Shown here: one piece after another, positions 1 to 49,879 of the stretch
How the letters are laid out: every line of letters starts with the position of its first letter
How positions within the stretch are numbered: the stretch's first letter is position 1
NCBI GenBank assembly: GCA_038046785.1
Contig: JBBSVM010000003.1
Location: forward strand, 211,228-275,227
Direction: 5' to 3'
DNA from: Thermoplasmatota archaeon
Lineage (GTDB): Archaea > Thermoplasmatota > E2 > JACPAO01 > JAHFTW01
DNA length: 64,000 nt
Notes under the pieces: model-generated
Told to the model about the DNA's origin: nothing
Database searches by the model: none
What the model saw: only the letters and a program-made list of their open reading frames with translations
Translations under genes and position numbers: made by a program

Positions 1-71
1 GACCGTCGAAATGGGTTCCTTCCAGCACGAATGCGCCGACGGGCTCGAACCCTAAAGGTATGCCCTCAGGG

Positions 72-1316
72 TCAACGCTTCTTGCCGCGGCCCTTGCGCA
101 CCGGGCGTTTGGCCGCCTTGCGGGCCTTGGCGGCGCGCTTGGCCGGCTTCGCCTTGCCGCCGTAGGGGACGACCTTCTCGATGAAGCCCTTTACGGTCTC
201 CGTCTCAGGCGGACCTTTGCGCGGCACCGGGATGGGGCGGCGGCGCATCTTCTGGGCCGCCTTGATCCAGGCCTTGGCGCGGCCTTCTTTGACGTTGCTG
301 CCGATGACGGAAGAGTCGAGGCTGGCCAGGTACTTGGTGACCTTCTTGGCGAGCGTCTTGGGCTCGCGCTTCTTCAGGTCGTCGATGCCCTTGACGCCGA
401 CGCGCGCCATCACCTCGGCGTACTGCGGGCCGATGCCCTTCGCCTTCATCATCTCCGCCATCGCTTGCCATTTCTTGACGACCTTGCGCGGCGCTTTGAT
501 GCGCTTGGCGAGCGGTCCCGCCTTCTCGAAGCGCAGGCGGCTCGACGTGTAGACGCCCTCTTTCTGCAGCCGCTTGGCGTAGATGGGGCCGATGCCCTCG
601 ATGTCGATGACCAAATGGTCGTCGCCGGGGAAGTCGCTGTGCGGGACGCGCGGCTTGCGGGCCTTCTTTTTGGCCGGCTTCGTGGCTGGCTTGGCAATTT
701 TGGGTTTGCGCGCCGGGCGGGCGCGGGGCGCGGTCTCACGCAGGACTACGCGCTTCGTCGGCGCACCCGGTTCCCAAGCTTCCTCCACAACGGTGGGTTG
801 GACAGGCGCTGGTTTGGTGTGAACGGGAATGACTTCGCGGTAGACGTGCTCCGAGGGCGTGGGTTCCTCGTCGGAGGCCACGACGTCCACGACCTCTTCG
901 CGCACGACGCGGCGCTCTTCCAACGCCACGTTGCGAATGAGCGGGTCCACGTCCGATTCGGGGTCGAACGGGCGCTCGCCGTGCGGGCTGGTGGTTGCGA
1001 ACTGGCGGCGGCCTTCCCCGTCGTAGGCGAGGACCTGGTTGCCGCGGTCAGTCTCATAGAGTGGGCGAGCCGAACGAGGAACCCGCGACGGCTCGGCAAC
1101 CTCGTCAAAGGCCAGCGGCGCCGACTCCGGCGCTTCCACCTGCCGCACCGGCTCCGGGGCAGGGGACCGCAGTTCGACGCCGTCGAAGTGGAGATGCTTG
1201 ACGTTGCCGCGTTCCAGCACCATTTCCATTGTTCCGGTGAGTGCCACGTCTTCGTCCGGCAACTCCTCGAACGGGGCATCCACAACCGCTTTGCGCCGAC
1301 CGCGTCCAAATGCCAT
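72..1316 (-). CDS. Helix-hairpin-helix (DUF4332-like) domain protein with acidic linker and a strongly basic Lys/Arg C-terminal tail
   Basis: Minus-strand ORF with two HhH-like motifs (IEGIGPIYAKRL, KAKGIGPQYAEVMARVGVKGIDDL) and a K/R-rich tail. The ATG at 1316 is chosen because the 5' part of the long ORF overlaps the confident DtdA gene on the plus strand. Start is uncertain (alternatives at 1229/1223). Confidence 0.5.
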   Translation of the reverse strand: MAFGRGRRKAVVDAPFEELPDEDVALTGTMEMVLERGNVKHLHFDGVELRSPAPEPVRQVEAPESAPLAFDEVAEPSRVPRSARPLYETDRGNQVLAYDGEGRRQFATTSPHGERPFDPESDVDPLIRNVALEERRVVREEVVDVVASDEEPTPSEHVYREVIPVHTKPAPVQPTVVEEAWEPGAPTKRVVLRETAPRARPARKPKIAKPATKPAKKKARKPRVPHSDFPGDDHLVIDIEGIGPIYAKRLQKEGVYTSSRLRFEKAGPLAKRIKAPRKVVKKWQAMAEMMKAKGIGPQYAEVMARVGVKGIDDLKKREPKTLAKKVTKYLASLDSSVIGSNVKEGRAKAWIKAAQKMRRRPIPVPRKGPPETETVKGFIEKVVPYGGKAKPAKRAAKARKAAKRPVRKGRGKKR

Positions 1317-1389
1317 GGCGCCAAACCATGGCCGGGGGGGTTGATAGACGAAGCGGCGAGGCCATGAGGCGCCGCCGGGTCGAGGTGCT

Positions 1390-2217
1390 GTGCGCATCCT
1401 GGTGGCGAACCGGTCCGACCCCGCCTCCTGCAACTTGCGCGACCAGCTCCTCGCCTCGGGGCGGTGGGAGGAGACGAACCGCACCTTCCGCGGCCATGCG
1501 ATGTGGTCGCAGAGCGAAGCGGTTCTGGTCCAGGTCGATGGGCCCGCCATTACCGACGAGGCGCTCGACGGCGACTTGCGCGCGACAGCGCTTCCGGTGC
1601 GCGACGTCTGGTTCCTCTCCAAGCACGCCGCCGCCTCCGGCATGCCGAGCCTCACCGTCCACCCGATTGGCAACCCGGGCGAGGCAAAGTTCGGCGGTCG
1701 CCCGGGCCAACTTGTCCCCGCTGCGGCGCGCGACATGGGAGCGCTGCTGCGCCGGATGCGCCACCACGCAACACGGCTCGGCCTGCCGCACCAGGTGGCG
1801 TATGAGGCGACACACCACGGCCCTTACCTCTCGTTCCCGTCTCTGTTCGTCGAGATTGGCTCCGACGACCGCTGGTACCGCGATGCCGCCTCGGGCGAAG
1901 CGGTCGCCTCCGCCATCCTCGACGTCCTCTCTGGTGAAGGCGCATCGCGCGCACCGGTCTGGGTCGGCATCGGAGGCGGCCATTACGCTCCGCGGGCCAC
2001 CGACATGGCGCTTGAGGGAGAGGCGGATTTCGGCCACCTCATCCCGAGCCATGCCCTCGAAGCGGCCGCCGACGGGCCAGCACTTCTGCGGCAAGCGTTC
2101 GCTGCGACGCCCGGCTGCGCTGGCCTTCATCTCCACCACAAAGGGATGAAGGGCGCTCTGCGCGCGCAGGTTCTGGCTTGGTGCGCCGAGGCGGGGCTCG
2201 CCGTCGCCAACCCGTGA
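1390..2217 (+). CDS. dtdA: D-aminoacyl-tRNA deacylase, archaeal type (DtdA)
   Basis: 275-aa protein whose length and N-terminus (MRILVANRSDPAS...) resemble archaeal D-Tyr-tRNA deacylases. GTG start at 1390. Confidence 0.75.
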   Translation: MRILVANRSDPASCNLRDQLLASGRWEETNRTFRGHAMWSQSEAVLVQVDGPAITDEALDGDLRATALPVRDVWFLSKHAAASGMPSLTVHPIGNPGEAKFGGRPGQLVPAAARDMGALLRRMRHHATRLGLPHQVAYEATHHGPYLSFPSLFVEIGSDDRWYRDAASGEAVASAILDVLSGEGASRAPVWVGIGGGHYAPRATDMALEGEADFGHLIPSHALEAAADGPALLRQAFAATPGCAGLHLHHKGMKGALRAQVLAWCAEAGLAVANP

Positions 2218-2240
2218 GAGCGTAAACGGGCATCGCACCT

Positions 2241-3209
2241 GTGCGAACACTTCCTGAAGTGGTCGCGCTTCCTCCCCGCGTTGTGGCCCAGCCCCGGACC
2301 CTTCTCCTCTCCGCCTTCGCGGCGGTCTATCTCATCTGGGGCAGCACCTACCTCGCCATCCTCATCGCCATCGAATCGATGCCACCGCTCCTGATGGCGG
2401 GCATCCGCTTCCTTGCCGCGGGCGCCATGCTCTGGCCGTTTGCTCGCCCCGGGCCTGGCGAAGCCGCGACGCCGACGCGGCGCGACTGGGCATGGGCCTT
2501 CCTGCTCGGATTCCTCATGTTCCTGATGGGCAACGGTTTCGTTGTTCTTGGCGAACAGTCCCTGCCAAGCGCCGTCGTCGCCCTTCTCGTCGGCGCCGTC
2601 CCGCTCTTCCTCGTTCTCTTTGAATCCATGCAAAAACGGCTTGCTCCCGGCCCCCTCGTGGTGGCGGGACTGGGTGCAGGCCTCGTCGGCGTTGCCCTGC
2701 TCGCCTCCGCCAAAGAGGGCTGGAAGGGCGATTTGGGGCTCTGGGCACTTCTCGGCGTGATGCTGGGAAGTGCTGGCTGGGCCGCCGGCTCGCTGCTGTC
2801 GCGCCGGAACCCAACGCGGCTGCCCCTCCTTCGCAACGTTGCCCTGCAGATGGTGGCGGGCGGCATCTTGCTCACTGTTGCGGCTCTCCTGCGCGGCGAA
2901 CACCGCGGCTTCGACCTCGCCGCCGTGACCGAGCGCAGTTGGCTGGCATGGCTCTACCTCGTTGTGTTCGGCGCCGTCGTCGCCTTCACCGCCTACGCCT
3001 GGCTGCTGCGCAACGTCGCCCCCGCCGTGGCGGGAACGTACGCCTTCGTCAACCCCATCGTCGCCGTCGTTCTTGGCGCCCTGTTTGCACGAGAGCCCAT
3101 TGGAGCGCGCACCGCTGCCGCCGCAGTCCTTGTCGTCGCCGCCGTGGCGCTCATCACACTCGACAAGGCGCGCGCCAGCCGCAAGGCAAAGCAGGACGCC
3201 GCCGCATAG
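2241..3209 (+). CDS. EamA/DMT-family transporter
   Basis: About 10 TM helices with a duplicated EamA-like architecture and typical motif AAVYLIWGSTYLAI. GTG start. Confidence 0.7.
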   Translation: MRTLPEVVALPPRVVAQPRTLLLSAFAAVYLIWGSTYLAILIAIESMPPLLMAGIRFLAAGAMLWPFARPGPGEAATPTRRDWAWAFLLGFLMFLMGNGFVVLGEQSLPSAVVALLVGAVPLFLVLFESMQKRLAPGPLVVAGLGAGLVGVALLASAKEGWKGDLGLWALLGVMLGSAGWAAGSLLSRRNPTRLPLLRNVALQMVAGGILLTVAALLRGEHRGFDLAAVTERSWLAWLYLVVFGAVVAFTAYAWLLRNVAPAVAGTYAFVNPIVAVVLGALFAREPIGARTAAAAVLVVAAVALITLDKARASRKAKQDAAA

Positions 3210-9675: not shown

Positions 9676-9708
9676 CCGCTTCGATTTTCCAGCTTAAGCT
9701 TTGCGTCA

Positions 9709-11814
9709 TCACGGGTCGGATTGCTGGCGGTTTCGAGCCTTGCGATGCACTCCAATCGCCAACCCGATCGAAGCTGCACTCACAAGCAGGAAAGCCACCA
9801 GCGTGACGGCGAAACTTTTTGTCGCTTGCAGAGGCGTCTCAAACACGCCGTCCAATCGATAGAGGGTCTGGGCGGGGCTGTTGGGTTGGAATTCGCGCGC
9901 CAACGGAGTGAACACGTTGCATTTCCGCGACTCCAAACTGGAACGGTCAGAGTTGTCGTACTTCAACGTCCGAATCGTGCTTGCCGCAGCTCCGTTTGCC
10001 AGCGCGATGAGAGGAGCCTGCGGCGGGCAGGCCAAGTAGGCAAGGACCTGCTTCCATTCGGACGCGAGAAAATGGAGCGTGCTGCCGGGGGCGTCGTAGC
10101 TCATGGTGGAGGAGGCCTGGTTGGCGCGGTCGGCGGCGCTGTAGCCAAGCGTGCATTCGGGGATGTGGGTGTGGCAAAGTCCGAGCGTGTGGCCCAATTC
10201 GTGCAGGATGGTGGAGGCAAGGAAATCGGTTCCGACCCGGGCTCCGACTTGTTTCAATTGCACGCTCTCTCCGCTCCCAAACACGACGAGGGGCGCCGTC
10301 CTGAACCAAGATGGTTGCCAAGTAAGCGCTGCATCGTCCTGCGTCGATGCCAGAACGATTTTCCCATCCGAGGCGACGAAGCCGTCGTCGAATCCCTGCT
10401 CCTGAATGAGGTCGAGGCGGTTGCCACGCACGATTTCTTCGAAGAAGGGCGACAGCGTCACCCGTGCACCCGAGGGGGCTTCAAAGTCGACCACGACAAA
10501 CTGCCCGTAATCCACCGCTGCAAGGAGCCCCCGCAGAGGTGCCACTCCGGAGTGGGACGTTTCGCTCTGGTCATGCTGCGGGTTCAGGACCACCGTGGTC
10601 ACGTAGGGATTGCTCGAATAGGTCCCCCGTGCAAGGAGATTGGCATAGTACGGTTCCGTCGACGACGGGATGAGTGGAGGATCCACGTCCGGGCCGGTGC
10701 GAATGCGCGTCTCGACCCAACTCACATGGATGTCTTGTTCCAGCAGGAATGCGGTCGCGACCGCTTGGTAAGCCGCCGTGAAGTCGAGGAAACTGAACCG
10801 CGCCGAATCGCTGCCCTCGACGCGCAAATACTCGATGAGGAGATCCTTCTGCCCCGCCAGAGGTCGCAACGAACCCCAGACAATGAGCCCATCCGTGTTC
10901 TCCCAGCCGTCGGCGATGCCATCCTGGTCCGCATCCTTGGTGGGCGTCTGGCCCGCTTTCCTGAATGCCTCAGAGACGCCATCTTGAACGCCCGACCCAA
11001 ACGTGTCCGGACGGAGTGGATCGAAAATCGACTTGACCTCCGCGCCATCGTCGAGGCCATCTGCGTCGCAATCCTTGTTCCGGACGCAGGAGCTGCGGCC
11101 CTCAAACCCGTCGAGGACGCCGTCGCCATCCCCATCGGAGCTGCAGCGGTCGCCGATTCCTTCCAGCGAATCCTGGCGCCCATCCGCGTCGTCGTCGCTC
11201 TCCAGAATCGCGGCGAAGCCGTCCCGATCGCAATCTTGGGTGCCAGATTCTCCCCCATCGTACAAGCCGTCCCCGTCGCTGTCGTGCACGGCTGGGTTTG
11301 AGCGCTGTTCGATTTCCAGGTTGTCCGGGATGGTGTCGAAATCGCTGTCCAAGCGCTGTGCATTCAGGCCGCTGCGAGTTTCCCAACCATCGGCGAGGCC
11401 GTCTCCGTCCGAATCACCGACTGCAGGGTTCGTCCCATCACGCAGCTCGCTCCAGGCGGAGGCGCCATCGCGGTCCAGGTCAACCACAAGCCAGAGTGCG
11501 AACGAGGCGAACCAGAGCGCGCACCCGACAAGGAGTGCGGGCCAAACCGTCCCCATCCTGCGCTTTGGCGCTGGACTCCACGTCCCTCCCCAGGCGGACA
11601 GCGGTTCACTCGGAATCTCTTCCCAGACCGGAACAACCTCTTCTTGCGGCAGCGGCACACGGACCGCATCCGAATGATGCAGGGGATCGGAGGCGGGCGC
11701 AGCGCAGTCGGCACAGAGCGGCTGCCCCCAGCTCTTCGCGAGAAAACGCGCACACGCCGGACAGCGACGAACCACGGCAACGCAGGACGGAGACGGTTGA
11801 AAAGGTCGGCGCAA
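9709..11814 (-). CDS. Metzincin-type zinc metalloprotease with thrombospondin-type-3 Ca-binding repeats, N-terminal zinc ribbon and C-terminal TM anchor
   Basis: HELGHTLGLCH matches the HExxHxxGxxH metzincin signature. Repeated DxDxDGxxD motifs. CPAC...CADC N-terminal zinc ribbon. TM helices after the ribbon and at the C-terminus followed by HRKARNRQQ. Start is uncertain (alternative Met at 11556). Confidence 0.65.
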   Translation of the reverse strand: MRRPFQPSPSCVAVVRRCPACARFLAKSWGQPLCADCAAPASDPLHHSDAVRVPLPQEEVVPVWEEIPSEPLSAWGGTWSPAPKRRMGTVWPALLVGCALWFASFALWLVVDLDRDGASAWSELRDGTNPAVGDSDGDGLADGWETRSGLNAQRLDSDFDTIPDNLEIEQRSNPAVHDSDGDGLYDGGESGTQDCDRDGFAAILESDDDADGRQDSLEGIGDRCSSDGDGDGVLDGFEGRSSCVRNKDCDADGLDDGAEVKSIFDPLRPDTFGSGVQDGVSEAFRKAGQTPTKDADQDGIADGWENTDGLIVWGSLRPLAGQKDLLIEYLRVEGSDSARFSFLDFTAAYQAVATAFLLEQDIHVSWVETRIRTGPDVDPPLIPSSTEPYYANLLARGTYSSNPYVTTVVLNPQHDQSETSHSGVAPLRGLLAAVDYGQFVVVDFEAPSGARVTLSPFFEEIVRGNRLDLIQEQGFDDGFVASDGKIVLASTQDDAALTWQPSWFRTAPLVVFGSGESVQLKQVGARVGTDFLASTILHELGHTLGLCHTHIPECTLGYSAADRANQASSTMSYDAPGSTLHFLASEWKQVLAYLACPPQAPLIALANGAAASTIRTLKYDNSDRSSLESRKCNVFTPLAREFQPNSPAQTLYRLDGVFETPLQATKSFAVTLVAFLLVSAASIGLAIGVHRKARNRQQSDP

Positions 11815-11937
11815 CCGGCACTGAAATCCTGCTCGCTGCAGGTGCCCCCACGCGAGCTGCCGGGTGCGCCGCGGACGACCGCCGGTGCGACGGCAGTCGA
11901 GCCCAAGCCCATTCCGAGTGCTGACAAGATTCCTGGG

Positions 11938-14052
11938 ATGTCACCGCAGAGCCTATATCCCAATCACCGAAATGGCGCGCATTGGCGGGGCCACGCCGTT
12001 GAGGCGTGCCCAAGCCCGGTGACTTCCTTGCTGCGCCCAACCGCTGTCGTTCTGGTTTGCGCCGCAATTCTGGCGTTCGCGCTTCCTTCGACGCAGGGGC
12101 AGGGTGCTGGCGTGAGCTACGAGCTCATCCTGAAGTGCCCCGAGTCGCAGACCATCACGGTCAGCACGACCACCTCGCCGACGTCGGCGTGCCCGGTGCG
12201 AGCAATCGATGGCGATGACGCCATGGGCGACCCCTCGCTCTCGGTGGATCCTTTCGACGACCAGCACCTCGTCATGGGGAGCTTGCACGGTTCCGGCGAC
12301 AATTTCGGCGCCCCGTCGCCCAAGAGCCGCAGCGGCCAGATCTTCACGACGTTCATCTCGGAGGACGGCGGGGCGAACTGGTACGACAACCCGTTCGTCG
12401 CGCCCGACGAGGTGGGGTTCGACGCGTACGGCGAGCACCCCCAGGTCACCATCGACCCGTACGGACACGTCTTCGTCGGCTCGCTCTACTCGCAGCCGGG
12501 CGGCGACGGCAATTTCACTTCCGTCATCGCGTCGCAGAAGTTCACCAGCATTTCAAACGCTCTCGACAACCAGAATGGCGCGGGCGACTACCACGCGCAG
12601 TACATCGACCCGGTCTATCCCAACAACCGCATCGGCCAGATGTGGTTCCTCTTCAACCCCATCACCGACAACATGACCATGGTGTGGTACGAGCAGTTGG
12701 TGGAGGCACTTCCACCGCCGTGCGACGACCACGTTGGCCACACGACCGTCGGCGACCTCTACATCGTCTCGGGAGGCACGACCCAGCCCGAGGTGTGGCA
12801 GGAGTCGAACGGCCAGCCCAGCCTGCAGACCGACACCAGCTGCCCAGGCAACCCCGACACGCGCACCGCGGCCCAGCGCGCCGCCCCAGCTCGCGCACCG
12901 GCCTCCAGCGCCGGGCGCCTTCCCAACGTGGCCGGGATGCCCGCCGAACCGAAATCGGCTCCCGCCTCTTCGGTCGTTCCCCAGCACGCCGCAGCCCAGG
13001 CAGCCGCCCCCGCATTCAACCCCAAGACGCCGCGCAGCGTCATCGGCGTGGTCTGGACCGACACCTCGGTGAGTGGCGACTACTATTACCAAAATGCCGC
13101 CGACGCCATCGGCCCCTGCCTGCGCAGCACCAACCCGGTGCTCTACCGCGGATTCCTCTACATCGGCTGCATCGCGAACCCGGACGAAGGGCCTTTCCCG
13201 TGGCATCCCGAGACGACGCTCGGGACCGTTGAACTGTTCCGCATGCACCCCGACGGCGGCAAGCCGGAATACATGGGTGCCGCCCCCATCAGCGGCGCCA
13301 ACCCCAAGCTGGGCGTGCGCAGCGATGGCCGCATTGCCTTGGTCGCGGCGGACGCCGTGGACGGCACGCTTCAGATGCGCGCCATCTATGGCCGCTACGT
13401 CAACCAGACCGTGGGCATGGAGTGGGGCTCGATCATCAATCTCGCGGACAAAGTGACGCCCACCACGCCGGGCCTTCGCGTCGCGGCGGCGAACGTGCAA
13501 GACATGATTTACCGCGAACAGTCGGGCGCCCTCCACCTCATCCTGAAACTCATCCTCGAGCCGACCGGCTTGGGCCTTGCGACGGCCGAAGAGGTGGCGG
13601 CTCCGCGCATCCGCAAATCCATCGTCGCCTTGGACGAGACCTACGGCTTGCTGACCCAGCTGGTGCTTGACATCGGCAACCCGCTCAACCGCACCGACCA
13701 GACTCTTCTCACCCAGAGCGACGCTGTGTTCAATGACCTGTCGGACGATTTCCTGCAGATGCCCGCCGGCCCCTACAGCCACGACGGTCGGCCGCTGGGC
13801 GACGAGTACCAGCGCGAGTACTTCGCCGTCGCCGACTACGGTACCGTCCTCTTCGCCGAAGTGGTCGAAGTGACGGAGCTGCGCGCTCCCGGTGTCCCGC
13901 CCGCCCCAGCACCTCCCGTGCCGGTCGCCTCCCCCGCCGTCAGCCTCGCCGGAGCGGTGGCGCCCGCGGCCGGCCTCGCGGGAGCCGCATTCACCGTCGC
14001 CATCCTTGCCGCCAACCGGCGCAAAGCCCTCAACATGTCCAAGCGAGAGTGA
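11938..14052 (+). CDS. Secreted surface protein with C-terminal TM anchor (hypothetical)
   Basis: Internal ATG chosen because the upstream part of the ORF overlaps the metalloprotease gene. Signal peptide AVVLVCAAILAFALPSTQG. C-terminal Pro-rich linker, then a hydrophobic helix, then RRK. Confidence 0.55.
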   Translation: MSPQSLYPNHRNGAHWRGHAVEACPSPVTSLLRPTAVVLVCAAILAFALPSTQGQGAGVSYELILKCPESQTITVSTTTSPTSACPVRAIDGDDAMGDPSLSVDPFDDQHLVMGSLHGSGDNFGAPSPKSRSGQIFTTFISEDGGANWYDNPFVAPDEVGFDAYGEHPQVTIDPYGHVFVGSLYSQPGGDGNFTSVIASQKFTSISNALDNQNGAGDYHAQYIDPVYPNNRIGQMWFLFNPITDNMTMVWYEQLVEALPPPCDDHVGHTTVGDLYIVSGGTTQPEVWQESNGQPSLQTDTSCPGNPDTRTAAQRAAPARAPASSAGRLPNVAGMPAEPKSAPASSVVPQHAAAQAAAPAFNPKTPRSVIGVVWTDTSVSGDYYYQNAADAIGPCLRSTNPVLYRGFLYIGCIANPDEGPFPWHPETTLGTVELFRMHPDGGKPEYMGAAPISGANPKLGVRSDGRIALVAADAVDGTLQMRAIYGRYVNQTVGMEWGSIINLADKVTPTTPGLRVAAANVQDMIYREQSGALHLILKLILEPTGLGLATAEEVAAPRIRKSIVALDETYGLLTQLVLDIGNPLNRTDQTLLTQSDAVFNDLSDDFLQMPAGPYSHDGRPLGDEYQREYFAVADYGTVLFAEVVEVTELRAPGVPPAPAPPVPVASPAVSLAGAVAPAAGLAGAAFTVAILAANRRKALNMSKRE

Positions 14053-14056
14053 CCCC

Positions 14057-16084
14057 GTGACCCAAGCCAAGCCCGCTTCCAAGAGCCCCACCGAACCGAA
14101 CGCCCTCATCAGCGACCCGTACGAGTGGATTGCCAAGCAGACCGACATCCAGAGCTCCAAAGACATCCCGGTCTCCACTAAGCTCATCGAGCAGGTCATC
14201 GGGCAGGACCTCGCGGTCGCCGTGGCGCAGAAAGCCGCGACGCAGAAACGCCACCTGCTATTGATTGGCGACCCCGGCACGGGCAAGTCGATGATTGCCA
14301 AAGCGATGGCGGAGATGCTGCCCGCCGAGAAGCTGAGCGATCTCCTCGTCTACCACAACGTCAAGGACCCCAACCAGCCCGCCATCCTCACCGTCGACGC
14401 CGGCAAAGGCCCCGGCGTCCTCACGAAGATGCGCCACCGCGCCGCCCGCAAGCGCGTCGTCATCAAAACGGTACAGTGGCTGGCGCTACTTGGCATCGCC
14501 ACGGTCTCCGGCTACTACTTCCTGCAAGGCGAACAGGTGATGGCGCTCCTGACCGGCATCATCGCGCTCGCCTTCGTCTACCTCATCTTCAAGCAGGGCA
14601 AGAACCCGACCGCCTTCATGGTCCCGAAGCTCCTGATGGAGCATGACCCCAACAAGGAGACGCACGCCTCCTATGTCGAAGCGACCGGCAGCCACGCTGG
14701 CGCCCTTCTGGGGGATGTGCGGCACGACCCGTTCCAGTCCGGCGGTCTCGAGACGCCGACGCACGAGCGCGTCGAGGTGGGAGCCATCCACCGCGCCCAC
14801 AAAGGCATCCTGTTCATCGACGAGATCAACGTCCTGCGCCTGGATTCGCAGCAGGCGCTCCTCACCGCGATGCAGGACCGCCAGTTCGCCATCGTCGGCC
14901 AATCGCAGACCAGCTCGGGCGCCATGGTGCGCACCCAGCCGGTCCCCTGCGATTTCATTCTCATCGCAGCCGGCAACCAGGACGCCGTGCAGCCCCCCGA
15001 CGCTTCGGGCACCCGCGGCATGCACCCCGCCCTGCGCAGCCGCATCCGCGGCTACGGCTACGAAGTGTTCGTGAACTCCGTCATGGACGACACGCACGAC
15101 AACCGCCTCAAGCTCTGCCGTTTCGTGACCCAGGAAGTCAACCGCGACGGCCGCATCCCTCACTTTGCGCGCGACGCCATCGCCGAAATCATTCTCGAAG
15201 CGCAGCGCCGCAGCGGCGCGCGCGGAAAATTGACGCTTCGCCTGCGCGAGCTGGGCGGCCTTGTCCGCACCTCCGGCGACATCGCCCAGGGCGCCGCCCG
15301 CGACGAGGTGACCGCCGACGATGTGCGCCAAGCCAAACGGTTGAGCCGCAGCCTGGAGCAGCAGATGGCGGAGTCCGCCCTGGAATCTCGCCGCAAGCAC
15401 GAAGCGCTGCGCCCGACCGGCCAACTCGTCGGCATCGCCTCCGGCGTCGGCCTGGTGGGCAGCGGCGAAGTGGGCGAACCGGCTGGCCTCGTTGTCCCCA
15501 TCGCAAGCAGCGTCACGCCCCCGATTTCCCGCTCGCGCGGCGAAATTGTCTTCGGTGGCGGCATCGAGGTCAGTGCCAAGATGCAAACCGAAATCGTCGA
15601 GGCGCTGCTCAAGCGCATCGCCGGGAGCACGATTGCCGACAAAGACATCCATGTCCAGAGCGTCGTGCCGCAGGAATCGGTGGACGCCAACGCCACCGGC
15701 CTCGCCCTCGTCGTAAGCGCCCTTTCGGCGCTGGAGGGCATCCCGGTGCGGCAGGACACCGTTCTGATTGGCGGCATCACCGTCACGGGAGAGTTGCGCG
15801 CGGTGCGCGGCGTCACGCAGCAGATTGAGACCGCCGTCGACGTCGGCTTCACTCGCGCCATCGTCCCCGCGACCAACCGCAACGACGTCCTCCTCAACCC
15901 GACCTACCGCGGCCGCGTCGAGATTCTGTTCGCCAACGACCTGGTGGAGGCGCTGGGCTCCTGCTTGACGGGACCGCGGGCTGGCGCCGTTGCCACGCGA
16001 TTGGCGGGACTTGCCGCGACGGGCGGAAACGGCCACACCGGACGGGCCGAGCCGGCCGTGGCACGCACCCGGACGGGCCGCTGA
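14057..16084 (+). CDS. lonB: Archaeal membrane-bound ATP-dependent Lon protease (LonB)
   Basis: Walker A LLIGDPGTGKSM, two TM helices inserted in the AAA module, and a C-terminal Lon protease domain. GTG start at 14057 just after the upstream stop. Confidence 0.8.
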   Translation: MTQAKPASKSPTEPNALISDPYEWIAKQTDIQSSKDIPVSTKLIEQVIGQDLAVAVAQKAATQKRHLLLIGDPGTGKSMIAKAMAEMLPAEKLSDLLVYHNVKDPNQPAILTVDAGKGPGVLTKMRHRAARKRVVIKTVQWLALLGIATVSGYYFLQGEQVMALLTGIIALAFVYLIFKQGKNPTAFMVPKLLMEHDPNKETHASYVEATGSHAGALLGDVRHDPFQSGGLETPTHERVEVGAIHRAHKGILFIDEINVLRLDSQQALLTAMQDRQFAIVGQSQTSSGAMVRTQPVPCDFILIAAGNQDAVQPPDASGTRGMHPALRSRIRGYGYEVFVNSVMDDTHDNRLKLCRFVTQEVNRDGRIPHFARDAIAEIILEAQRRSGARGKLTLRLRELGGLVRTSGDIAQGAARDEVTADDVRQAKRLSRSLEQQMAESALESRRKHEALRPTGQLVGIASGVGLVGSGEVGEPAGLVVPIASSVTPPISRSRGEIVFGGGIEVSAKMQTEIVEALLKRIAGSTIADKDIHVQSVVPQESVDANATGLALVVSALSALEGIPVRQDTVLIGGITVTGELRAVRGVTQQIETAVDVGFTRAIVPATNRNDVLLNPTYRGRVEILFANDLVEALGSCLTGPRAGAVATRLAGLAATGGNGHTGRAEPAVARTRTGR

Positions 16085-18174
16085 TGGCACGCATTCCCGC
16101 CGTTGCATTCCTGCTGCTGGCCGCGGTCCTGTCGGGCTGTGTTGGCGACCTGGATGACTACCACACCTTCGACGCGGACGCCCAGTACCGCAACCCGGGT
16201 GTCTTCGAAGGATCGTACGTCTTCACGCGGGACGGCTCCACGGTGCTGAGCACCGGAGCGCTCTCGGCGACTCAGCCGGAAGTGGTTCGCCTGCGCTCCA
16301 CCCTGCCCGCCTACGCGGCGATGGCCGGCGAATCCTCGACAGACGCTGAAGTGACCATCACGATGGCCATCTGGCGCCCGGAGAATGTGACGACGCCGGT
16401 TCCCATCATCGTGGACGCCGGCCCCTACTTTGAGTACGACTCGCACTGCCGAGTTCCCGACCAGAACCCGTGCCGCGTCGAGCAGATTCCCGACGCCATC
16501 GACTACCCGGGCCAGACCACCCCGTTCTCCCTCAAGAATTTCCTGCCGCACGGATACGCCGTCGTACAGCTTGCGGTGCGCGGGACGGGAACCTCCGGCG
16601 GCTGCATGGACTTGCTGGGACCGGCCGAACAGCACGACCTCGACCAGGCCATCACCTGGCTTGGCGAGCAGCCCTGGTCGAACGGCAACATCGCCATGGT
16701 TGGCGCCTCCTACGACGGCTCGACCCCCTGGCTCGTCGCCGCCGCCGGCAATCCGCACCTCAAAACCATCGTCCCCACGTCGGGACTTCCCGACATCTTC
16801 GACTTGATGTTCCGCAACGGCACCGCCGAGACGCGCGGTTCCATCATGCACTCCCTGGTGTACTGGCCGTACGGGTTCTCGGATGGTTTCCCCTGGAACC
16901 GTCTGCCCGCTGCGGTGCCGCCCGGAACGCTGCCGCCATTCCCCGGCGCTGGCGCCAACGGCCGCGAGCAGTACCAGGATTTGCAGAACTTGGTCTGCCC
17001 GGAACTCTACCGCGGCGCGGCACAGGGACCGCTCGCCTCCGTGACCGGTTCCCGCCTCACCGAGGCGAGCGACTACTGGACCGTGCGCGACCATCAACAG
17101 GCGGTCCTCGACAACTACGAAGGGAGCATTTTCCTGGTGCACGGCCTGCAGGACTGGAACGTGGACCCCCATGTCGCAGTCCCGTTCAATGTCCAATTGC
17201 GCGCGGCGGGCATCGAGATGAAGGAGTGGTTCGGCCAGTGGGGCCACGCCTTCCCCGACTCCACCTGCGCCCGCACCGTGCCGGACTGGGTGACGCTGCC
17301 CTGCCGCCTCGATTTCGCCGAGGTGCTCCTGCGCTGGTTCGACCGCTACTTGAAAGACAATGCAACGGCCGATCTCGGCCCCGCCCTGCAGGTGCAGGAC
17401 AACGTCGGATTCTGGCGCAACGCGGACGCGTTCCCGCCCACCGACGCCGCCTGGCAGCCTTGGGCCTTGACCGGCGACGGCGCGCTGTCGAACGCTGCGG
17501 GCCCCGCATCGACCTTCACGCTCAACCCGCCGCAAACCGGTGCGCCCGGCAACACGCTGGAGCTGAAGAGCGCCGTCTTCGAGGAGGATGTCCGCGTCTC
17601 CGGCCTGCCCACACTCCACATCCCGTTCACCTCGACCGCCGGGGGCGGCATGCTGGGGGCGTGGCTGATGGACGAGGACGCCGACGGCAACGTGCGCGCT
17701 CCCTCTGCTGGACAGAATCTGGACGGCGACTGGGTTCCGTTTGGCATCCCAGTCGTTGGACACGCCCAGATGAACCTGCGCTACTACGCAGGGGGCGAAG
17801 AGGCCCAGACCCTGCGCCCCGACACCCAGTACGTCGCGCGCATGCAGTTCGAGCCGCTCGACATCCTGGTGCCGCGCGGCCACCGCCTCACCCTCTGGGT
17901 CTTCCAGTACGCCTACCCCGACCACCAGGCGTCGCTCACTCCCTCGCCCGTCGAGATTGCCCTCGGCGAGGGTGGCGCCGTGCTGAACCTGCCGACGATT
18001 GCGGTGGACGCACGCACCGTGTTCCCGGTTCCGGGAGCGCACTTCCCGAGCCGCGACCTGGTGGGGCTCATGTTTGTCCCCAAGCCTGCCCTCACCGCCT
18101 CGTCGCCGCTGCCCATTCCGGTGCCGCCCGCCTGCTCCGGCCTGCCGCAGACATTCTGCGACCAACATCTGTGA
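16084..18174 (+). CDS. S15 peptidase / CocE-NonD family hydrolase (X-Pro dipeptidyl-peptidase-like), lipoprotein
   Basis: Nucleophile elbow MVGASYDG (GxSYxG) and LSGC lipobox. Its start overlaps the lonB stop (ATGA). Confidence 0.7.
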   Translation: MARIPAVAFLLLAAVLSGCVGDLDDYHTFDADAQYRNPGVFEGSYVFTRDGSTVLSTGALSATQPEVVRLRSTLPAYAAMAGESSTDAEVTITMAIWRPENVTTPVPIIVDAGPYFEYDSHCRVPDQNPCRVEQIPDAIDYPGQTTPFSLKNFLPHGYAVVQLAVRGTGTSGGCMDLLGPAEQHDLDQAITWLGEQPWSNGNIAMVGASYDGSTPWLVAAAGNPHLKTIVPTSGLPDIFDLMFRNGTAETRGSIMHSLVYWPYGFSDGFPWNRLPAAVPPGTLPPFPGAGANGREQYQDLQNLVCPELYRGAAQGPLASVTGSRLTEASDYWTVRDHQQAVLDNYEGSIFLVHGLQDWNVDPHVAVPFNVQLRAAGIEMKEWFGQWGHAFPDSTCARTVPDWVTLPCRLDFAEVLLRWFDRYLKDNATADLGPALQVQDNVGFWRNADAFPPTDAAWQPWALTGDGALSNAAGPASTFTLNPPQTGAPGNTLELKSAVFEEDVRVSGLPTLHIPFTSTAGGGMLGAWLMDEDADGNVRAPSAGQNLDGDWVPFGIPVVGHAQMNLRYYAGGEEAQTLRPDTQYVARMQFEPLDILVPRGHRLTLWVFQYAYPDHQASLTPSPVEIALGEGGAVLNLPTIAVDARTVFPVPGAHFPSRDLVGLMFVPKPALTASSPLPIPVPPACSGLPQTFCDQHL

Positions 18175-18181
18175 GGTTGCC

Positions 18182-18805
18182 ATGGCTGCCGACGAAGTCT
18201 CTGGATGGGCTGGCGCAAGTGCCATCGTTGCGCTCGGCCTTGTGGCTGCGGCGTTCGCCTTGCCGTGGTTCAGCTACGAGTTCTCCTCGGGCCGTCAGAC
18301 CGCCCCCGGTGGATTCAACGACGCCAATGAGACCGGCGTGGAACGCCACACCCTCGAGGTCTATCCAACGCACACGACGGGTGACGTGCAGCCCACGCAT
18401 CCCGAGGATTTGCGCACGGCAACCGACCGCATGACCTGGGCGCTTGCGGCCGCCATCGTGCTGAGCGCGCTTGCCGCTCTGGCAGAGCTCCCGGGTGTTC
18501 GCCGCCTCCTTGTGCGGCGCGTCGTCCTGGGCATGGACCTGCTGGCCCTGGTCGCCATCGGCATCAGCCTTGCCGTGGCGTGGTATCACATCCCTGCAAC
18601 CCTGGACGGCTACGGTGTGCAGGATCCGTTCACCTCCTTCGTCGACCGCGACGCAGGGTACACCCGGACGACGATTGGGCCTGGCTGGGTGTTGGCCGCT
18701 GCCGGTGGCATCGCAGCGCTGGTGGCTTTGGCGTTCAAGTTCCAAGCCGGCTCGTCCGATGCGGCGCTCGTCGAGGAGCTGGCGGCTGCGTCACGCAAAT
18801 CCTAG
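18182..18805 (+). CDS. Hypothetical 4-TM membrane protein
   Basis: Internal ATG at 18182 just after the upstream stop. Four hydrophobic helices. Confidence 0.45.
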   Translation: MAADEVSGWAGASAIVALGLVAAAFALPWFSYEFSSGRQTAPGGFNDANETGVERHTLEVYPTHTTGDVQPTHPEDLRTATDRMTWALAAAIVLSALAALAELPGVRRLLVRRVVLGMDLLALVAIGISLAVAWYHIPATLDGYGVQDPFTSFVDRDAGYTRTTIGPGWVLAAAGGIAALVALAFKFQAGSSDAALVEELAAASRKS

Positions 18806-18849
18806 GTTCGAGACGCGACACCCACCGGAGCGCGCTGTGGTGCCGCTCG

Positions 18850-20076
18850 TTACTTGCGGGAGCGTTTGCGGAACCCGCTTTCGGCGACCGTGTCCATGGT
18901 GAGCTTGACCGCGACGAGGGCCACGGTCGCAACGCCCACGAGGCTCAACAGGACAACGACTCCGTTGAACTGCGGCGGCTCCGGAACCCCCACGACGCCC
19001 GCGACGATGTCGGCCGAGCTGCCGAGCCTTGACAAGCAATCAGCAAAGTCGCGCCGCGCTTGGACCCCGAGGCTGACGACGTCCCACCAGAGGTCCAGCA
19101 CGAACTCCGACGGCGGGGCCAGGTCGAGGGTGATGGAGTAGCTCCCGAGCGCCATCTTGCCTGCGACATCGACGCGGTAGGCGCCGAACTCGGTGAGCGG
19201 GAACTCGACCGTCGCCCCGTCGTCGGCCGCCAGGGCGGGCGCCACGGTCGCGTTGCCGAGGTTTGCGCCGCTGGCTGAGCGGAACGTGAAGGTGAGCTCG
19301 TTGAGCCCGGCGGGGGCGCGCGCCGTTGCGGTGATGGTCGCGGTGGCGCGGCCACCGAACTTGAGGTTGGGGAAGAGGTGCTGGCTGACGTAGGCGGGAT
19401 TGTAGGAGGTGGAACCATCGGGCAGGTCGCCGGGGGATGGGAAGACGAACTGCGCCGCAGTCGGCGCCGCATCTGGAGGCGATTGGATCTGGAGATGCAT
19501 TTCCCAGTCGCCATCTGCCGCCGTCTCGTCCGGCAGCGGTTCGAGAGCGTTGGCCGCCAACGGCTGCAACCGGCCATCGCCGTTGTCGCGGAATCCATGC
19601 GGGGTGACGAAGAACGAGGCGGTCACGTTCTCGCCGTCGCCGGTGGGGTCAGGGTAGGGCTGGCCATCGACGACGAGCTGCGCGGTGCCCCACGCCGCCG
19701 CGTCGGCAAACAGCTTGGGATGGCCACCTTCGACCGTCAGGTTGCGCGCTACGGGGCCTTGCGACCCTTTGCCGTCCACGAAGCTGTTCATCTCGATCTC
19801 GACCGTTGTGCCCTCGCCCTGTTCGGCATCGGGGCCGAAGATGCCCAGGACGTTGACGCGGCCGTTCTCGCGCTCCGGCCGCAGCTGTGCCATGGCGCAG
19901 CCGTCGTAGGGCAGGAGCTGCTGCGTCTCACCAAGACCGAGCGCCAGCGTCCCGTTCCCCAGAAGACCGTGCGAGAAATAGTAGGGAACGCCGTCGAAAT
20001 CCGCCACCGCGTTGGAGGGGCCCGTCAAGGAGCCCGTCAGCAGGAGCGCAGAGGTGGCAAGAAAGAGAAGCCGCAA
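18850..20076 (-). CDS. Secreted hypothetical protein with C-terminal TM anchor and basic tail
   Basis: Signal-like LRLLFLATSALLLTG. The C-terminus is a hydrophobic helix followed by GFRKRSRK. The annotated ORF start at 20226 lies inside a tandem repeat, so the real start is uncertain (TTG near 20076 is proposed). Confidence 0.4.
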   Translation of the reverse strand: MRLLFLATSALLLTGSLTGPSNAVADFDGVPYYFSHGLLGNGTLALGLGETQQLLPYDGCAMAQLRPERENGRVNVLGIFGPDAEQGEGTTVEIEMNSFVDGKGSQGPVARNLTVEGGHPKLFADAAAWGTAQLVVDGQPYPDPTGDGENVTASFFVTPHGFRDNGDGRLQPLAANALEPLPDETAADGDWEMHLQIQSPPDAAPTAAQFVFPSPGDLPDGSTSYNPAYVSQHLFPNLKFGGRATATITATARAPAGLNELTFTFRSASGANLGNATVAPALAADDGATVEFPLTEFGAYRVDVAGKMALGSYSITLDLAPPSEFVLDLWWDVVSLGVQARRDFADCLSRLGSSADIVAGVVGVPEPPQFNGVVVLLSLVGVATVALVAVKLTMDTVAESGFRKRSRK

Positions 20077-20183
20077 CCGAAGACCGACCCGAACCCAAGC
20101 GACTTTTGCTTGTGAAATAAGGGTTGTGGGGAGAACCGCGGAGGGATGCCACGCACGGCCGCTTCCGGCCCAGCAGGTGCGTT

Positions 20184-20386
20184 CAGTGCTGGTGCGGTTG
20201 CGACCTGCAGTCAGGTCGATCAACACGGGTGGGACCTTCGGCTTTCCAAGCCTCCGGCCCCACGCCAGCCCACTCAGTGCTGGTGCGGTTGCGACCTGCA
20301 GTCAGGTCGATCAACACGGGTGGGGCCTCCGGCTTTCCAAGCCTCCGGCCCCACGCCAACCCACTCAGTGCTGGTGCGGTTGCGTC
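20184..20386. repeat. Tandem direct repeat of about 90-91 bp: two copies plus the native 19-nt sdhB terminus
   Basis: Copies at 20184-20274 and 20275-20364 are near-identical (one 1-nt indel, 3 substitutions). Each begins with tcagtgctggtgcggttgcg, which is the stop codon plus the last 5 codons of sdhB at 20365-20383. Confidence 0.85.
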
Positions 20387-21126
20387 TCGGCCTTCACGAA
20401 ATCGGTGGTGCCGTACAGGATGGCTTTCTTGACGTCGCCAATGTGCTTCGTGATGTCGATGCCCTGAGGACAGGCTTCCACGCAGTTGAAGGCAGTGCGG
20501 CAGCGCCAGACGCCGGTGTAGTCGTTGAGGCGCTCGATGCGCTCGGCGTTGCCCTCGTCGCGCGAGTCAAAGAGGAAGCGGCTCGCCTGGACGATGGCGG
20601 CGGGGCCGACGAACTGGTCGTTGCTCCAGAACGATGGGCAGGAGGTGGTGCAGGCGGCGCACATGATGCACTTCGACTGGTCGTCAATCTTGGCGTGCTG
20701 CTCGGGCGACTGCAACCGTTCGCGGCCGGAGGGCTCGTGCGTCGTCACCTGGTAGGGCATGACCGACTTGTAGGACTCGAAGAATGGGTCCATGTCGACG
20801 ATGAGGTCTTTCTTCACGGCGAGTCCCTTGAGCGGCTCGACGGTGATGGTGGAGGGCAGGTCGCGCACCAGGGTCTTGCAGGCGAGGCGGTTCTTGCCGT
20901 TGATCTGCATCGCGTCGGAGCCGCAGATGCCGTGCGCGCAGGATTTGCGGAACGCGAGCGAGCCGGACTGCTCGCCTTTGATGCGCAGCAGGAGGTCGAG
21001 GACGCGGTCCATCGGGTTGACCTCGGTGAGCGTGTAGGATTCGGTGTGCGGCTTGGTGTCGCCCTTCTCCGGCTCGAAGCGGGAGACGCGCAAGGTCACG
21101 GTCTGGTTGGCCTGTTCGATGTTCAT
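20365..21126 (-). CDS. sdhB: Succinate dehydrogenase/fumarate reductase iron-sulfur subunit
   Basis: 2Fe-2S and 4Fe-4S cysteine clusters (CAHGICGSDAM, CIMCAACTTSCP, CVEACPQGID). ATG at 21126 overlaps the sdhA stop. Confidence 0.85.
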   Translation of the reverse strand: MNIEQANQTVTLRVSRFEPEKGDTKPHTESYTLTEVNPMDRVLDLLLRIKGEQSGSLAFRKSCAHGICGSDAMQINGKNRLACKTLVRDLPSTITVEPLKGLAVKKDLIVDMDPFFESYKSVMPYQVTTHEPSGRERLQSPEQHAKIDDQSKCIMCAACTTSCPSFWSNDQFVGPAAIVQASRFLFDSRDEGNAERIERLNDYTGVWRCRTAFNCVEACPQGIDITKHIGDVKKAILYGTTDFVKAETQPHQH

Positions 21127-22880
21127 CAGTAAACACGCTCCACGGGTTGGTACCGGGTGATGGTGACCGGCTTGTAATCGAGGGTGACGGCGTCGCCATT
21201 CAAGGTGGCCAGGGTGTGCTTGAGCCACGCCTGGTCGCTGCGCTTGGGGAAATCGTCGCGCGCGTGGCCGCCACGCGATTCCTTGCGGGCGAGGGCCGAC
21301 TCGACGACGGCAAGGCTGATGTCGAGGAGATAGCCCAACTCGAGCGCCTCCAGGAGCTCCGTGTTGAACAGCTTGCCCTTGTCGCTCACCGCGATTTTCT
21401 TGGCGCGGCCGCGCAGCACCTGGATGATGCCCTTGCACTGCGTCAATGACGCTTCGGTGCGGTAGACGCCACACAGGTCCATCATGGCGACCTGCATCTC
21501 CTCGCGCAGTTTGGCGACCGACTCGGTTCCCGCGCCAGCAAGCAGCGTCTTGAGTTGCCCTTCGGCAGCAGCCTGGGGGCCGACGGGGAGGCTGAGGTGC
21601 TCTGCTTTCTTGCAGAACTCCGCCATGCGGCGTCCGCCGCGGCGTCCGAAGACAACGAGGTCCAGCAACGAGTTGGTGCCGAGGCGGTTGGCGCCGTGCA
21701 CCGAGACGCAGGCGCATTCGCCGGCAGCGAACAGGCCGGTGACCGTAGTGCCCTTGTTGTCGAGAACGACTTCGGCTTCCACATTGGTCGGGATGCCGCC
21801 CATGGCGTAGTGCGCCGTTGGGGCGACTGGGATGGGCTCGGTCTTCGGCTCAATGCCGAGGTAGGTGCGGGCGAAGCCGGTAACCTCAGGGAGCTTTTTG
21901 TCGATGATTTCGGGGTCGAGGTGCGTGACGTCGCAGACGACGTACTGGTCGCCCTTGGGGCCGATGCCACGGCCCTCGCGAATCTCGGTGTAGATGGCGC
22001 GGCTCACGACGTCGCGCGAGGCCAGGTCCTTCATGGTGGGCGCATAGCGCGCCATGAACGCCTCACCGGTCGAGTTGCGCAGGATGCCGCCCTCACCGCG
22101 CACCGCTTCCGACAGCAGGACGCCGATGCGCCACAGGCCGGTGGGGTGGAACTGGTAGAACTCGGCGTCCTGGATGGGAATGCCGTGCCGCATCGCGATG
22201 GCGACCGCGTCGCCGGTGAGGGCGTGCGCGTTGGAGGTGACTTTCCAGGCGCGGCCGTAGCCGCCCGCCGCGAACATCGTCGCCTTGGCGTGGAAGGTGT
22301 GAATCTCTCCGGTCTCCATCTGGTAAGCAACGACGCCGGCGACTGCCTTCTTGCCCTTCGCGTCCTTCGCCTCGACGATGTCGAGGACCTGGTACTCGTT
22401 GAAGAAGCGGACACCGTTCTTCAGGCACTGCTGGTACATGGTGTGCAGCATGGCGTGCCCGGTGCGGTCGGCGGAGTGGCAGGCGCGTTCGACGGGCGCC
22501 TTGCCGTGGTCACGGGTGTGGCCGCCGAAGCGGCGCTGGCTGATTTTGCCGTTGGGCAGGCGGTCGAACGGGAGGCCCATGTGCTCGAGCTGGAGGATGG
22601 TCTCCGGCGCGTCGCGGCACATGATTTCGATGGCGTCCTGGTCGCCGAGGAAGTCGCTGCCCTTGACGGTGTCGTAGGCGTGCCACTCCCATTGGTCCTC
22701 GCCGACGTTGCCAAGCGCCGCCGAGATGCCGCCCTGTGCCGCGCCAGTGTGCGAGCGCACGGGGTAGAGTTTCGAGAGGACGGCGACGTTGAGCCCCTTC
22801 TCTTTCGACAGCTCATAGGCCGCCATGAGGCCGGCGCCGCCGGCGCCCACGATGATGGCGTCAAACTTGTGATAGGTCAT
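21126..22880 (-). CDS. sdhA: Succinate dehydrogenase flavoprotein subunit
   Basis: FAD-binding GAGGAGL, the covalent-FAD histidine region RSHTGAAQGG, and active-site HPTG. Confidence 0.9.
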   Translation of the reverse strand: MTYHKFDAIIVGAGGAGLMAAYELSKEKGLNVAVLSKLYPVRSHTGAAQGGISAALGNVGEDQWEWHAYDTVKGSDFLGDQDAIEIMCRDAPETILQLEHMGLPFDRLPNGKISQRRFGGHTRDHGKAPVERACHSADRTGHAMLHTMYQQCLKNGVRFFNEYQVLDIVEAKDAKGKKAVAGVVAYQMETGEIHTFHAKATMFAAGGYGRAWKVTSNAHALTGDAVAIAMRHGIPIQDAEFYQFHPTGLWRIGVLLSEAVRGEGGILRNSTGEAFMARYAPTMKDLASRDVVSRAIYTEIREGRGIGPKGDQYVVCDVTHLDPEIIDKKLPEVTGFARTYLGIEPKTEPIPVAPTAHYAMGGIPTNVEAEVVLDNKGTTVTGLFAAGECACVSVHGANRLGTNSLLDLVVFGRRGGRRMAEFCKKAEHLSLPVGPQAAAEGQLKTLLAGAGTESVAKLREEMQVAMMDLCGVYRTEASLTQCKGIIQVLRGRAKKIAVSDKGKLFNTELLEALELGYLLDISLAVVESALARKESRGGHARDDFPKRSDQAWLKHTLATLNGDAVTLDYKPVTITRYQPVERVY

Positions 22881-49872: not shown

Positions 49873-49879
49873 GACAGCC

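Follow-up and report, generated by a model that had tools for sequence, protein, structure and literature searches.

Casposons are kilobases long, carry genes for Cas1 and a polymerase, possess terminal inverted repeats and produce a fixed duplication of 14-15 bp. They were reportedly first characterised in the Thermoplasmatota archaeon Aciduliprofundum boonei. The MIRU minisatellites of mycobacteria consist of tandem units of 40-100 bp located directly after a stop codon, with each unit re-creating the stop-codon context. The integrative elements of archaea use att sites of 8-243 bp, for which the 3' ends of tRNA genes are preferred and whose 5' limits are variable (PMC8371274). These elements also use protein-coding genes and allow tandem integration, and an integrase with homology-dependent activity has been documented among them (PMC8371274). 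Displacement of gene ends is known from the orphan modules of T6SS effectors and CDI/Rhs systems, in which a new gene end recombines in via conserved upstream sequence and the old end persists downstream as an orphan (PMC5361080).

Here we describe a tandem array directly downstream of sdhB in a 64-kb stretch of archaeal DNA, hereafter the window, whose SdhB is 100% identical to NCBI MEK6985422.1 from a Thermoplasmatota MAG. On balance, the array is probably a small non-coding mobile element that has no enzyme of its own, is present in two tandem copies and was inserted att-style at the sdhB 3' end by recombination within a copy of the gene end.

The tandem array at the 3' end of sdhB

The Fe-S subunit of succinate dehydrogenase is encoded by sdhB (20365..21129, minus strand), the last gene of sdhCDAB. 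All of these genes were confirmed by Pfam, with Fer2_3 and Fer4 matches in SdhB, and sdhB is collinear with that of a relative (L001). Immediately beyond it, TRF identified positions 20183-20384 of the window as a single tandem array with a period of 91, 2.2 copies and 97% matches. A second repeat search agreed, placing the 91-bp units at 20183-20273 and 20274-20364. In the sense of sdhB, on the minus strand, the layout is A-B-A-B'-A, in which A is CGCAACCGCACCAGCACTGA, the final 20 nt of sdhB including the TGA, and B and B' are 71 nt each. Three positions differ between the units, all of them inside the B part. Exact copies of A occur three times in the 64-kb window, at 20183, 20274 and 20365 with a spacing of 91 nt; none arose in 100 shuffles, and the hairpin sequence of B likewise never arose in 100 shuffles of the window. 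Pattern searches with up to three mismatches and nhmmer found neither A nor the hairpin elsewhere in the window. The copy number of two at this locus is that of the one source assembly.

All parts of the array are given here on the minus strand, beginning at sdhB. The in-use gene-end copy, A1 (20365..20384), is the genuine sdhB terminus, encoding ..T Q P H Q H and the stop. Element copy 1 (B, 20294..20364) abuts the stop codon of sdhB. It contains hairpin 1 at 20322..20352, identified by its pattern (GGGGCC-GGA-GGCTT-GGA-AAGCC-GGA-GGCCCC) and predicted fold, and a 3' module at 20292..20316 that comprises TGTTGATC, hairpin 2 (GACCTG-ACTG-CAGGTC) and a G, and that overlaps the next gene-end copy by 2 nt. 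This middle copy of the sdhB end, A2 (20274..20293), is again the exact 20-mer. Element copy 2 (B', 71 nt, 20203..20273) carries three substitutions relative to copy 1, and its GGTCCC variant is common to the copy at L004, one of the other loci described below. Its hairpin 1 (20231..20261), also a pattern match, has one G-C pair changed to G-U and one change in an internal loop, and its 3' module (20201..20225) is identical to that of copy 1 in the alignment. The array ends with A3 (20183..20202), the distal, displaced copy of the sdhB end and likewise an exact 20-mer, which is joined to the native downstream flank.

Each B is predicted to form a long GC-rich hairpin followed by the second hairpin, and the predicted folds of single units have z-scores of -3.4 to -4.0. 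The hairpin is followed by CCCGTGTTGATC and no T-run, unlike an intrinsic terminator of the bacterial type. Nor is this a CRISPR array, since both alternating parts repeat and there are no variable spacers. Apart from one tRNA in L006, no match at the Rfam gathering score was obtained in the window or at the other loci; across 20050-20450, Rfam gave nothing up to E=10, and the 64-kb window contains no detected tRNAs or Rfam families. Inspection by eye for a bulge-helix-bulge intron, a tRNA-like structure, a K-turn, a hammerhead, an integron attC site or an IS200/IS605 end revealed none that fits across copies.

The initial annotation had described two near-identical 90/91-bp copies in tandem after sdhB, each re-creating the sdhB end and containing a nested GC-rich hairpin. 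The tandem repeat is real, with the two repeat searches in agreement, and the re-created end is an exact 20-mer that includes the stop codon and is present three times. The two near-identical units stand, but both are 91 bp, with three differences. The nested hairpin is predicted as described, but a second hairpin located 3' of it had gone unmentioned.

The element is open in five of its six reading frames, and the array thereby gives rise to several spurious ORFs of 58-328 aa. These include 20146-21132 and 20012-20467 on the plus strand and 20183-20359 on the minus strand.

The downstream gene and its surroundings

The gene downstream of sdhB (18850..20076, minus strand) encodes a protein of 408 aa with a signal peptide, a C-terminal membrane anchor and no Pfam match, and it starts with TTG at 20076. 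Residues 1-408 of its closest homolog, P0243 (84% identity, 408 aa), align to residues 51-458 of the long ORF, and the repeat-encoded residues of the long ORF are matched by 0 of 78 homologs. Judged by these alignments, the start at 20226 is spurious and adds a false 50-residue N-terminal extension to the downstream gene. A TATA-like block, CCCCACAACCCTTATTTC (20114..20131, minus strand), is identical in the window and in a close relative, L016, despite the diverged spacer around it and is the probable promoter of the gene. The initial annotation had placed the 5' end and promoter of this gene inside the array, which is refuted by the homolog start at the TTG and by the lack of any homolog covering the repeat residues. 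The related proposal that the array had created the promoter also fails, for both the TATA-like block and the start region are outside the array and are conserved in L016. For annotation, such arrays yield spurious ORF extensions, as with the 20226 start, and can be mistaken for terminators or assembly errors.

The window is collinear with L001, whose SdhB is 87% identical, until the sdhB stop codon, beyond which the gene order departs. In L001, sdhB is followed directly by DUF6159 and then by BNR2. In the window, about 10.5 kb (9,700-20,180) encoding secreted proteins, an S15 peptidase and LonB precedes BNR2, and DUF6159 is absent. Downstream of sdhB, the gene order of L016 is that of the window rather than that of L001. 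No partner element or repeat was found at the far end of the segment not shared with L001 (~9.7 kb), which holds LonB and peptidases and is thus no obvious island.

In these Thermoplasmatota, the SdhB tail after the conserved ..GTTDF is 10-25 residues long and different in every relative (P0001-P0013). With the exception of one long-tailed sequence, these tails end in His (..HQH, ..HPH, ..HDH, ..HAH, ..HGH, ..MQH, ..PAH, ..PSH). Elsewhere in the window, at 49904-50161, eight degenerate repeat copies with a spacing of 18/30 nt are located at the 5' end of the ORF at 49030-50172 (minus strand) or slightly upstream of it. If translated, this repeat would form an Arg/Ala/Pro-rich N-terminal extension of that ORF.

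Empty sites in related genomes

L016 is a Logan contig from a different sample and has the same gene order as the window, with sdhB followed by the 408-aa gene, a 208-aa gene and an S15 peptidase. Its spacer between sdhB and the neighbouring gene is only 101 nt and contains neither B nor a duplicated A. Instead, ..CCGCACCAGCACTGA runs straight into the native flank, and it is this flank, directly after sdhB in L016, to which the sequence past A3 of the window aligns. Pairwise alignment of the window with L016 leaves one clean gap of 182 bp, equivalent to two units. L016 is thus free of both B and the duplication despite its shared gene order, and the window carries an insertion of 182 bp. Comparison with the region downstream of sdhB in a relative had been proposed in the initial annotation as a check, and the copy number in L016 is zero. 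At the level of sequence, the comparison demonstrates an ancestral arrangement of the sdhB stop, a spacer of ~100 nt and the promoter of the next gene, to which the lineage of the window added 182 bp, that is, twice a 71-nt element plus a 20-nt copy of the sdhB end.

Element-free sites also exist for nucS, which is followed by a related element in another genome (L002). This element and both of its flanking copies are base-identical in the SPAdes, MEGAHIT and Logan assemblies (L002, L008 and L009). The nucS orthologs of L014 and L015 are element-free, with spacers of 10 and 7 nt, respectively. Those of L010-L013 also have no element and contain an unrelated MITE-like insert instead. In these four JGI samples, the 158 nt after nucS form an insert of lower GC content with inverted termini, CCACTG../..CAGTGG, and the direct repeat TTGTCC on both sides. 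This insert resembles a conventional MITE, and the spacer between nucS and its neighbour seems to be an insertion hotspot.

A dispersed family at gene ends

An exact 24-mer of B matches two other MAGs, one containing L002 and the other containing both L003 and L004, and a 22-mer of B matches two 40%-GC contigs from one metagenome, L005 and L006. A third metagenome match, L007, was rejected as a chance match to the coding sequence of a bacterial binding protein (..ALIDLTAGQ..). There are six loci in total, and all were retrieved by exact 22-24-mers of B, so the constancy of the 3' module is in part a product of the search. In L002, from the Thermoplasmata MAG nzgw65, a version of the element with a shorter hairpin lies 3' of nucS. 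In L003, a GT-like gene on the opposite strand has the element at its 5' end, and in L004, from the same MAG, the element is 3' of a thyX-like gene. This MAG is labelled 'bacterium', but its NucS marks it as an archaeon of the same broad group. The element of L006 is directly 3' of an intron-containing tRNA gene, and that of L005 follows a partial tRNA 3' end, beside small ORFs that include a CcdA-like antitoxin.

At five of the six loci, the element is bracketed by direct repeats of the adjoining gene terminus, which range from 19 to 72 nt, and the outer boundary of the repeat falls 0-4 nt beyond the stop codon, start codon or tRNA end, again at five of six. The repeat measures 20 nt at the sdhB 3' end in the window, ~27-30 nt at the nucS 3' end (L002), 36-39 nt at the 5' end of the GT-like gene (L003), 66-72 nt at the 3' end of the thyX-like gene (L004) and 25-26 nt at the tRNA 3' ends (L005 and L006). 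Although L005 and L006 are distinct loci, their repeat boundaries are identical. In L006, the repeat is found between the two element copies, but the second copy is followed only by GGG, and the expected distal repeat is missing. Doublets of the form A-B-A-B-A are present at three of the six loci, namely the window, L003 and L005.

The 63-nt cores of the copies in the window, L003 and L004 are 94-98% identical. The core of the proximal window copy (copy 1) is 98.4% identical to that of L003a, compared with 96.8% identity to its own tandem neighbour. In contrast, identity in NucS is only 67% between the L003/L004 MAG and nzgw65, and 88% between nzgw65 and the window genome. The high identity of the cores relative to this divergence points to a recent horizontal spread of the element. 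The last 25 nt of the element, TGTTGATCGACCTGACTGCAGGTCG, are the same in the GC-rich and AT-rich versions; 22 of these nt were demanded by the search, and the run is the 3' module described above. The sequence of hairpin 1 differs entirely between the GC-rich and AT-rich groups, yet it is still predicted to fold. A diverged copy, L006_B1, has a different hairpin in place of hairpin 2. The distance from the gene end to hairpin 1 is 10-21 nt in the GC-rich copies; the 3' end of the element is invariant, and its 5' part varies.

Further members were sought in several ways. Searches with nhmmer and a structural regular expression detected no diverged copies in the window or the retrieved loci, and peptides translated from the element gave no match at E <= 10. 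Three different sub-patterns of the element had 0 matches in viral and proviral contigs, and nothing relevant to the element was found among annotated phages and plasmids. Limited full-text searching of the literature found no description of such an element. The family is rare and apparently undescribed, and it occurs at gene ends in several archaeal genomes.

Other features accompany some of these loci. To the left of the array in L005 (positions 1-3130) are small ORFs without a known family, the CcdA-like antitoxin (E 7e-8) and a weak AbrB/MazE-like match. This region, which ends at the partial tRNA 3' end, could be the edge of an integrated mobile element, and the array may thus sit in an att-site region. 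The L003/L004 MAG has a separate REP-like family, at 3970-4192 of L003 and 3149-3315 of L004. It consists of tandem units of ~100-121 nt with GC-rich hairpins of different stems, each followed by CGTAGCGC, and it is intergenic and without duplication of gene ends.

In-use and displaced gene ends

Over 129 nt at three protein-gene loci, the in-use and displaced copies of the gene end differ at 10 codons, and all 10 differences preserve function (seven are synonymous, two exchange one stop for another and one exchanges one start for another). Only about one random substitution in four would be synonymous, so each of the two copies seems to have evolved while serving as a functional gene end. The displaced end of nucS (AGC.. 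TTC GGC TGA) agrees with that of L010 and L014, two of the three orthologs without the element. The in-use end (AGT.. TTT GGT TAG) contains rare codons, at 0-6% of their families in that genome (GC3 0.93), and its TTT GGT is natural in the related element-free lineage L015. In L003, the in-use start reads ATG AGA and the displaced start TTG CGC; none of the genes sampled from that genome uses AGA. Codon usage in both L003 and L004 agrees with a foreign in-use end and a native displaced end. This polarity, with the displaced copy as the native one, is backed by orthologs at nucS only and elsewhere by codon usage. In the window, the A copies are all identical and thus give no information on polarity; the copies of L005 are also identical. 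The differences are partitioned as a single crossover predicts: in the in-use copy the left part is host and the right part foreign, and in the displaced copy this order is inverted. In the L003 doublet, the copy in the middle is of the foreign, or 'element', type throughout.

Several other readings were considered and rejected. Ordinary drift after duplication does not account for displaced copies that have hardly departed, if at all, from the native sequence. Selection merely to lower the identity of the repeats should have altered the unconstrained copy more often. A tract of AT-ending codons upstream of the repeat was considered as imported DNA, but gene tails are generally richer in AT3 (0.17 vs 0.13 in 37 window genes) and the tract was not significant. 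Finally, homology of the element 5' part to the native flank, as in a longer and diverged duplication, was not supported by local alignments against shuffles (p = 0.05-0.98).

Origin of the array

In an att-style integration, the incoming unit would carry its own copy of the target gene terminus and would recombine with the chromosomal gene end through a single Campbell-type crossover, catalysed by either a trans-acting recombinase or host homologous recombination. The element-side copy would then complete the gene, and the original end would be pushed downstream of the element to lie beside the native flank. Doublets could form by a second integration into the regenerated site or by unequal crossing-over between the flanking repeats. 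Because sdhB and the promoter of its neighbour stay intact, the insertion is probably near-neutral, and the only predictable effect would be the addition of two very stable hairpins to the 3' region of the sdh transcript.

This reading had been raised in the initial annotation as att-site-like repeats left by integration at the sdhB 3' end, and it is largely borne out by the empty site in L016, the dispersed core and the gene-end repeats. As in att elements, gene-end repeats bracket the insert in the window and in L002-L005, and on one side in L006, and there are single-copy empty sites for sdhB (L016) and nucS (L014 and L015). Several observations count against it. As a double-stranded circle serving as a recombination substrate, a unit of 91-146 bp would be very small. 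Since the same core is found with different gene-end copies, the element must also be able to switch its target homology. At the window, the A copies are identical, and the evidence for an element-borne copy comes only from other loci. Moreover, L006 is without the distal repeat, and L015, although element-free, shares TTT GGT with the in-use copy of nucS. No integrase, transposase or reverse transcriptase is encoded in the 20 kb around the window array or among the listed ORFs of the 4-11 kb loci, and no cognate integrase was found inside the non-coding element or in the Pfam-scanned ORFs of the adjacent ~10-kb segment.

A serious rival, albeit one that we regard as rather unlikely, is a transposition-type origin combined with recombinational spread. 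A transposon- or retroelement-like insertion would have produced long and variable target-site duplications, through staggered breaks or target-primed synthesis, and the occupied alleles would then have spread by homologous recombination, giving rise to the differences between copies. The variation in repeat length from 19 to 72 nt fits such an origin, as do the invariant 3' end next to a 5' part that varies in length and sequence, the identity of the A copies in the window and in L005, and the failure to see an element-specific recombinase. A SINE-like, target-primed retroelement would show a constant 3' end, 5' truncation and duplications of varying size; the copies keep their 3' end and vary in their 5' part and duplication, and no reverse transcriptase was found at the examined loci. 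However, random staggered cuts would not place the boundary 0-4 nt past a gene terminus at five of six loci, and L005 and L006 have the same repeat boundaries. Neither a reverse transcriptase nor a transposase was found near the copies, and differences that only preserve function, together with a native-like displaced copy at nucS, require an extra recombination step.

The remaining alternatives are less probable still. The element could be real and its tandem arrangement in the window an assembly artefact, with a population of A-B-A alleles carrying two variants of B that were joined through the 20-nt repeat. B and B' differ by only three SNPs, A is close in length to a small k-mer overlap, and the window array is known from one assembly alone. 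This explanation is nevertheless improbable, for doublets are also found in L003 and L005, from other assemblies, the single-copy element at nucS was reproduced exactly by three assemblers, and the joining of B to B' would presumably need reads spanning B-A-B' at a final k >20. It is very improbable that B and the downstream gene-end copy form a functional RNA, with scaffold and guide, whose RNA-guided nuclease cuts unoccupied alleles and drives copying of the element while the in-use end is recoded to escape. The hairpin and the displaced gene-end copy are indeed just 1 nt apart, which recalls guide RNAs whose scaffold is 5' of the guide, and the in-use copies are synonymously changed while the displaced copies keep the native sequence. 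Nevertheless, the upstream sides of the targets have no motif in common, the differences cluster at the far end of the repeat rather than in the hairpin-proximal 20 nt, and the copies in the window and in L005 are not recoded. In addition, B falls far short of known scaffolds in length, and no gene for a nuclease was found. Replication slippage expanding the terminator hairpin of sdhB itself, which the initial annotation had offered as an origin, is contradicted and scarcely credible. The head-to-tail units do begin with the last 20 nt of sdhB and contain a stable hairpin. However, the empty site in L016 is without any copy of B, B is also present at unrelated loci (nucS, thyX-like, GT-like and tRNAs) in other genomes, and no T-run follows the hairpin. 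In archaea, to which the host belongs, termination depends on oligo-T and not on hairpins. The increase from one unit to two could nonetheless be due to slippage or to unequal crossing-over.

Comparison with known systems

Beyond the att-style origin of the window array itself, we tentatively suggest, with considerable reserve, that the loci are the first examples of a new class of archaeal integrative element, miniature and without an enzyme of its own. These would be two-hairpin cassettes of ~55-90 nt that travel with a function-preserving copy of the target terminus and insert at gene ends (the 3' ends of protein genes, one 5' end and the 3' ends of tRNAs), displacing the native end. The 25-nt terminal hairpin module, identical in Thermoplasmatota of 67-70% GC and archaea of 40% GC, would be the recognition site of a recombinase or nuclease. 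If so, att-style integration at gene ends would not be confined to viruses, plasmids and islands of kilobase size but would extend to a non-coding cassette of ~70 nt, which would have moved recently between distantly related archaea. It would also imply a recombination activity acting in trans, for which the 25-nt hairpin offers a concrete handle for finding the enzyme, and would explain orphan copies of gene termini and small tandem arrays beside core genes.

Like MITEs and REP/REPIN sequences, the element is short, non-coding, hairpin-forming, extragenic and non-autonomous, and it shows presence/absence polymorphism. Unlike MITEs, it has no consistent terminal inverted repeats when the aligned copies are inspected by eye, and its duplications are variable and 19-72 nt long, compared with a fixed 2-10 bp. 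It differs from REP/REPIN in its very low copy number, with no other in the 64 kb, and in the presence of flanking duplications. Casposons also integrate at the 3' ends of tRNA and protein genes in archaea, through Cas1 (PMC5137440). They regenerate the target and can form tandem arrays. In contrast, the element described here is 71 nt and non-coding, with a duplication of 20 nt in the window and 19-72 nt across the family.

The array also resembles the MIRUs, in that tandem units directly after a stop codon re-create its context. However, the whole unit of a MIRU is family sequence, whereas the family sequence here is confined to B, with a 20-nt part that is specific to the locus. The displacement of 3' ends in T6SS and CDI/Rhs systems is comparable, since an old gene end is moved downstream by a new end that recombined in. 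Those systems exchange toxin/immunity modules of hundreds of bp, whereas here the same residues are encoded and the hairpin element is the sole 'cargo'.

The array most clearly invites comparison with integrative elements of the tyrosine-integrase type that use att sites at the 3' ends of tRNA or protein genes, and with their enzyme-less, cis-mobilisable derivatives, which accrete in tandem. In both, gene-end direct repeats bracket the insert and extend to the gene end or slightly beyond it, which restores the gene; its in-use end need not match the displaced original, and empty sites and tandem arrays occur, with repeats that fall within the range of 8-243 bp (PMC8371274). Unlike those elements, the insert described here is ~55-90 nt and non-coding, with no cargo, integrase or known recombinase partner, and near-identical cores are paired with different target genes.
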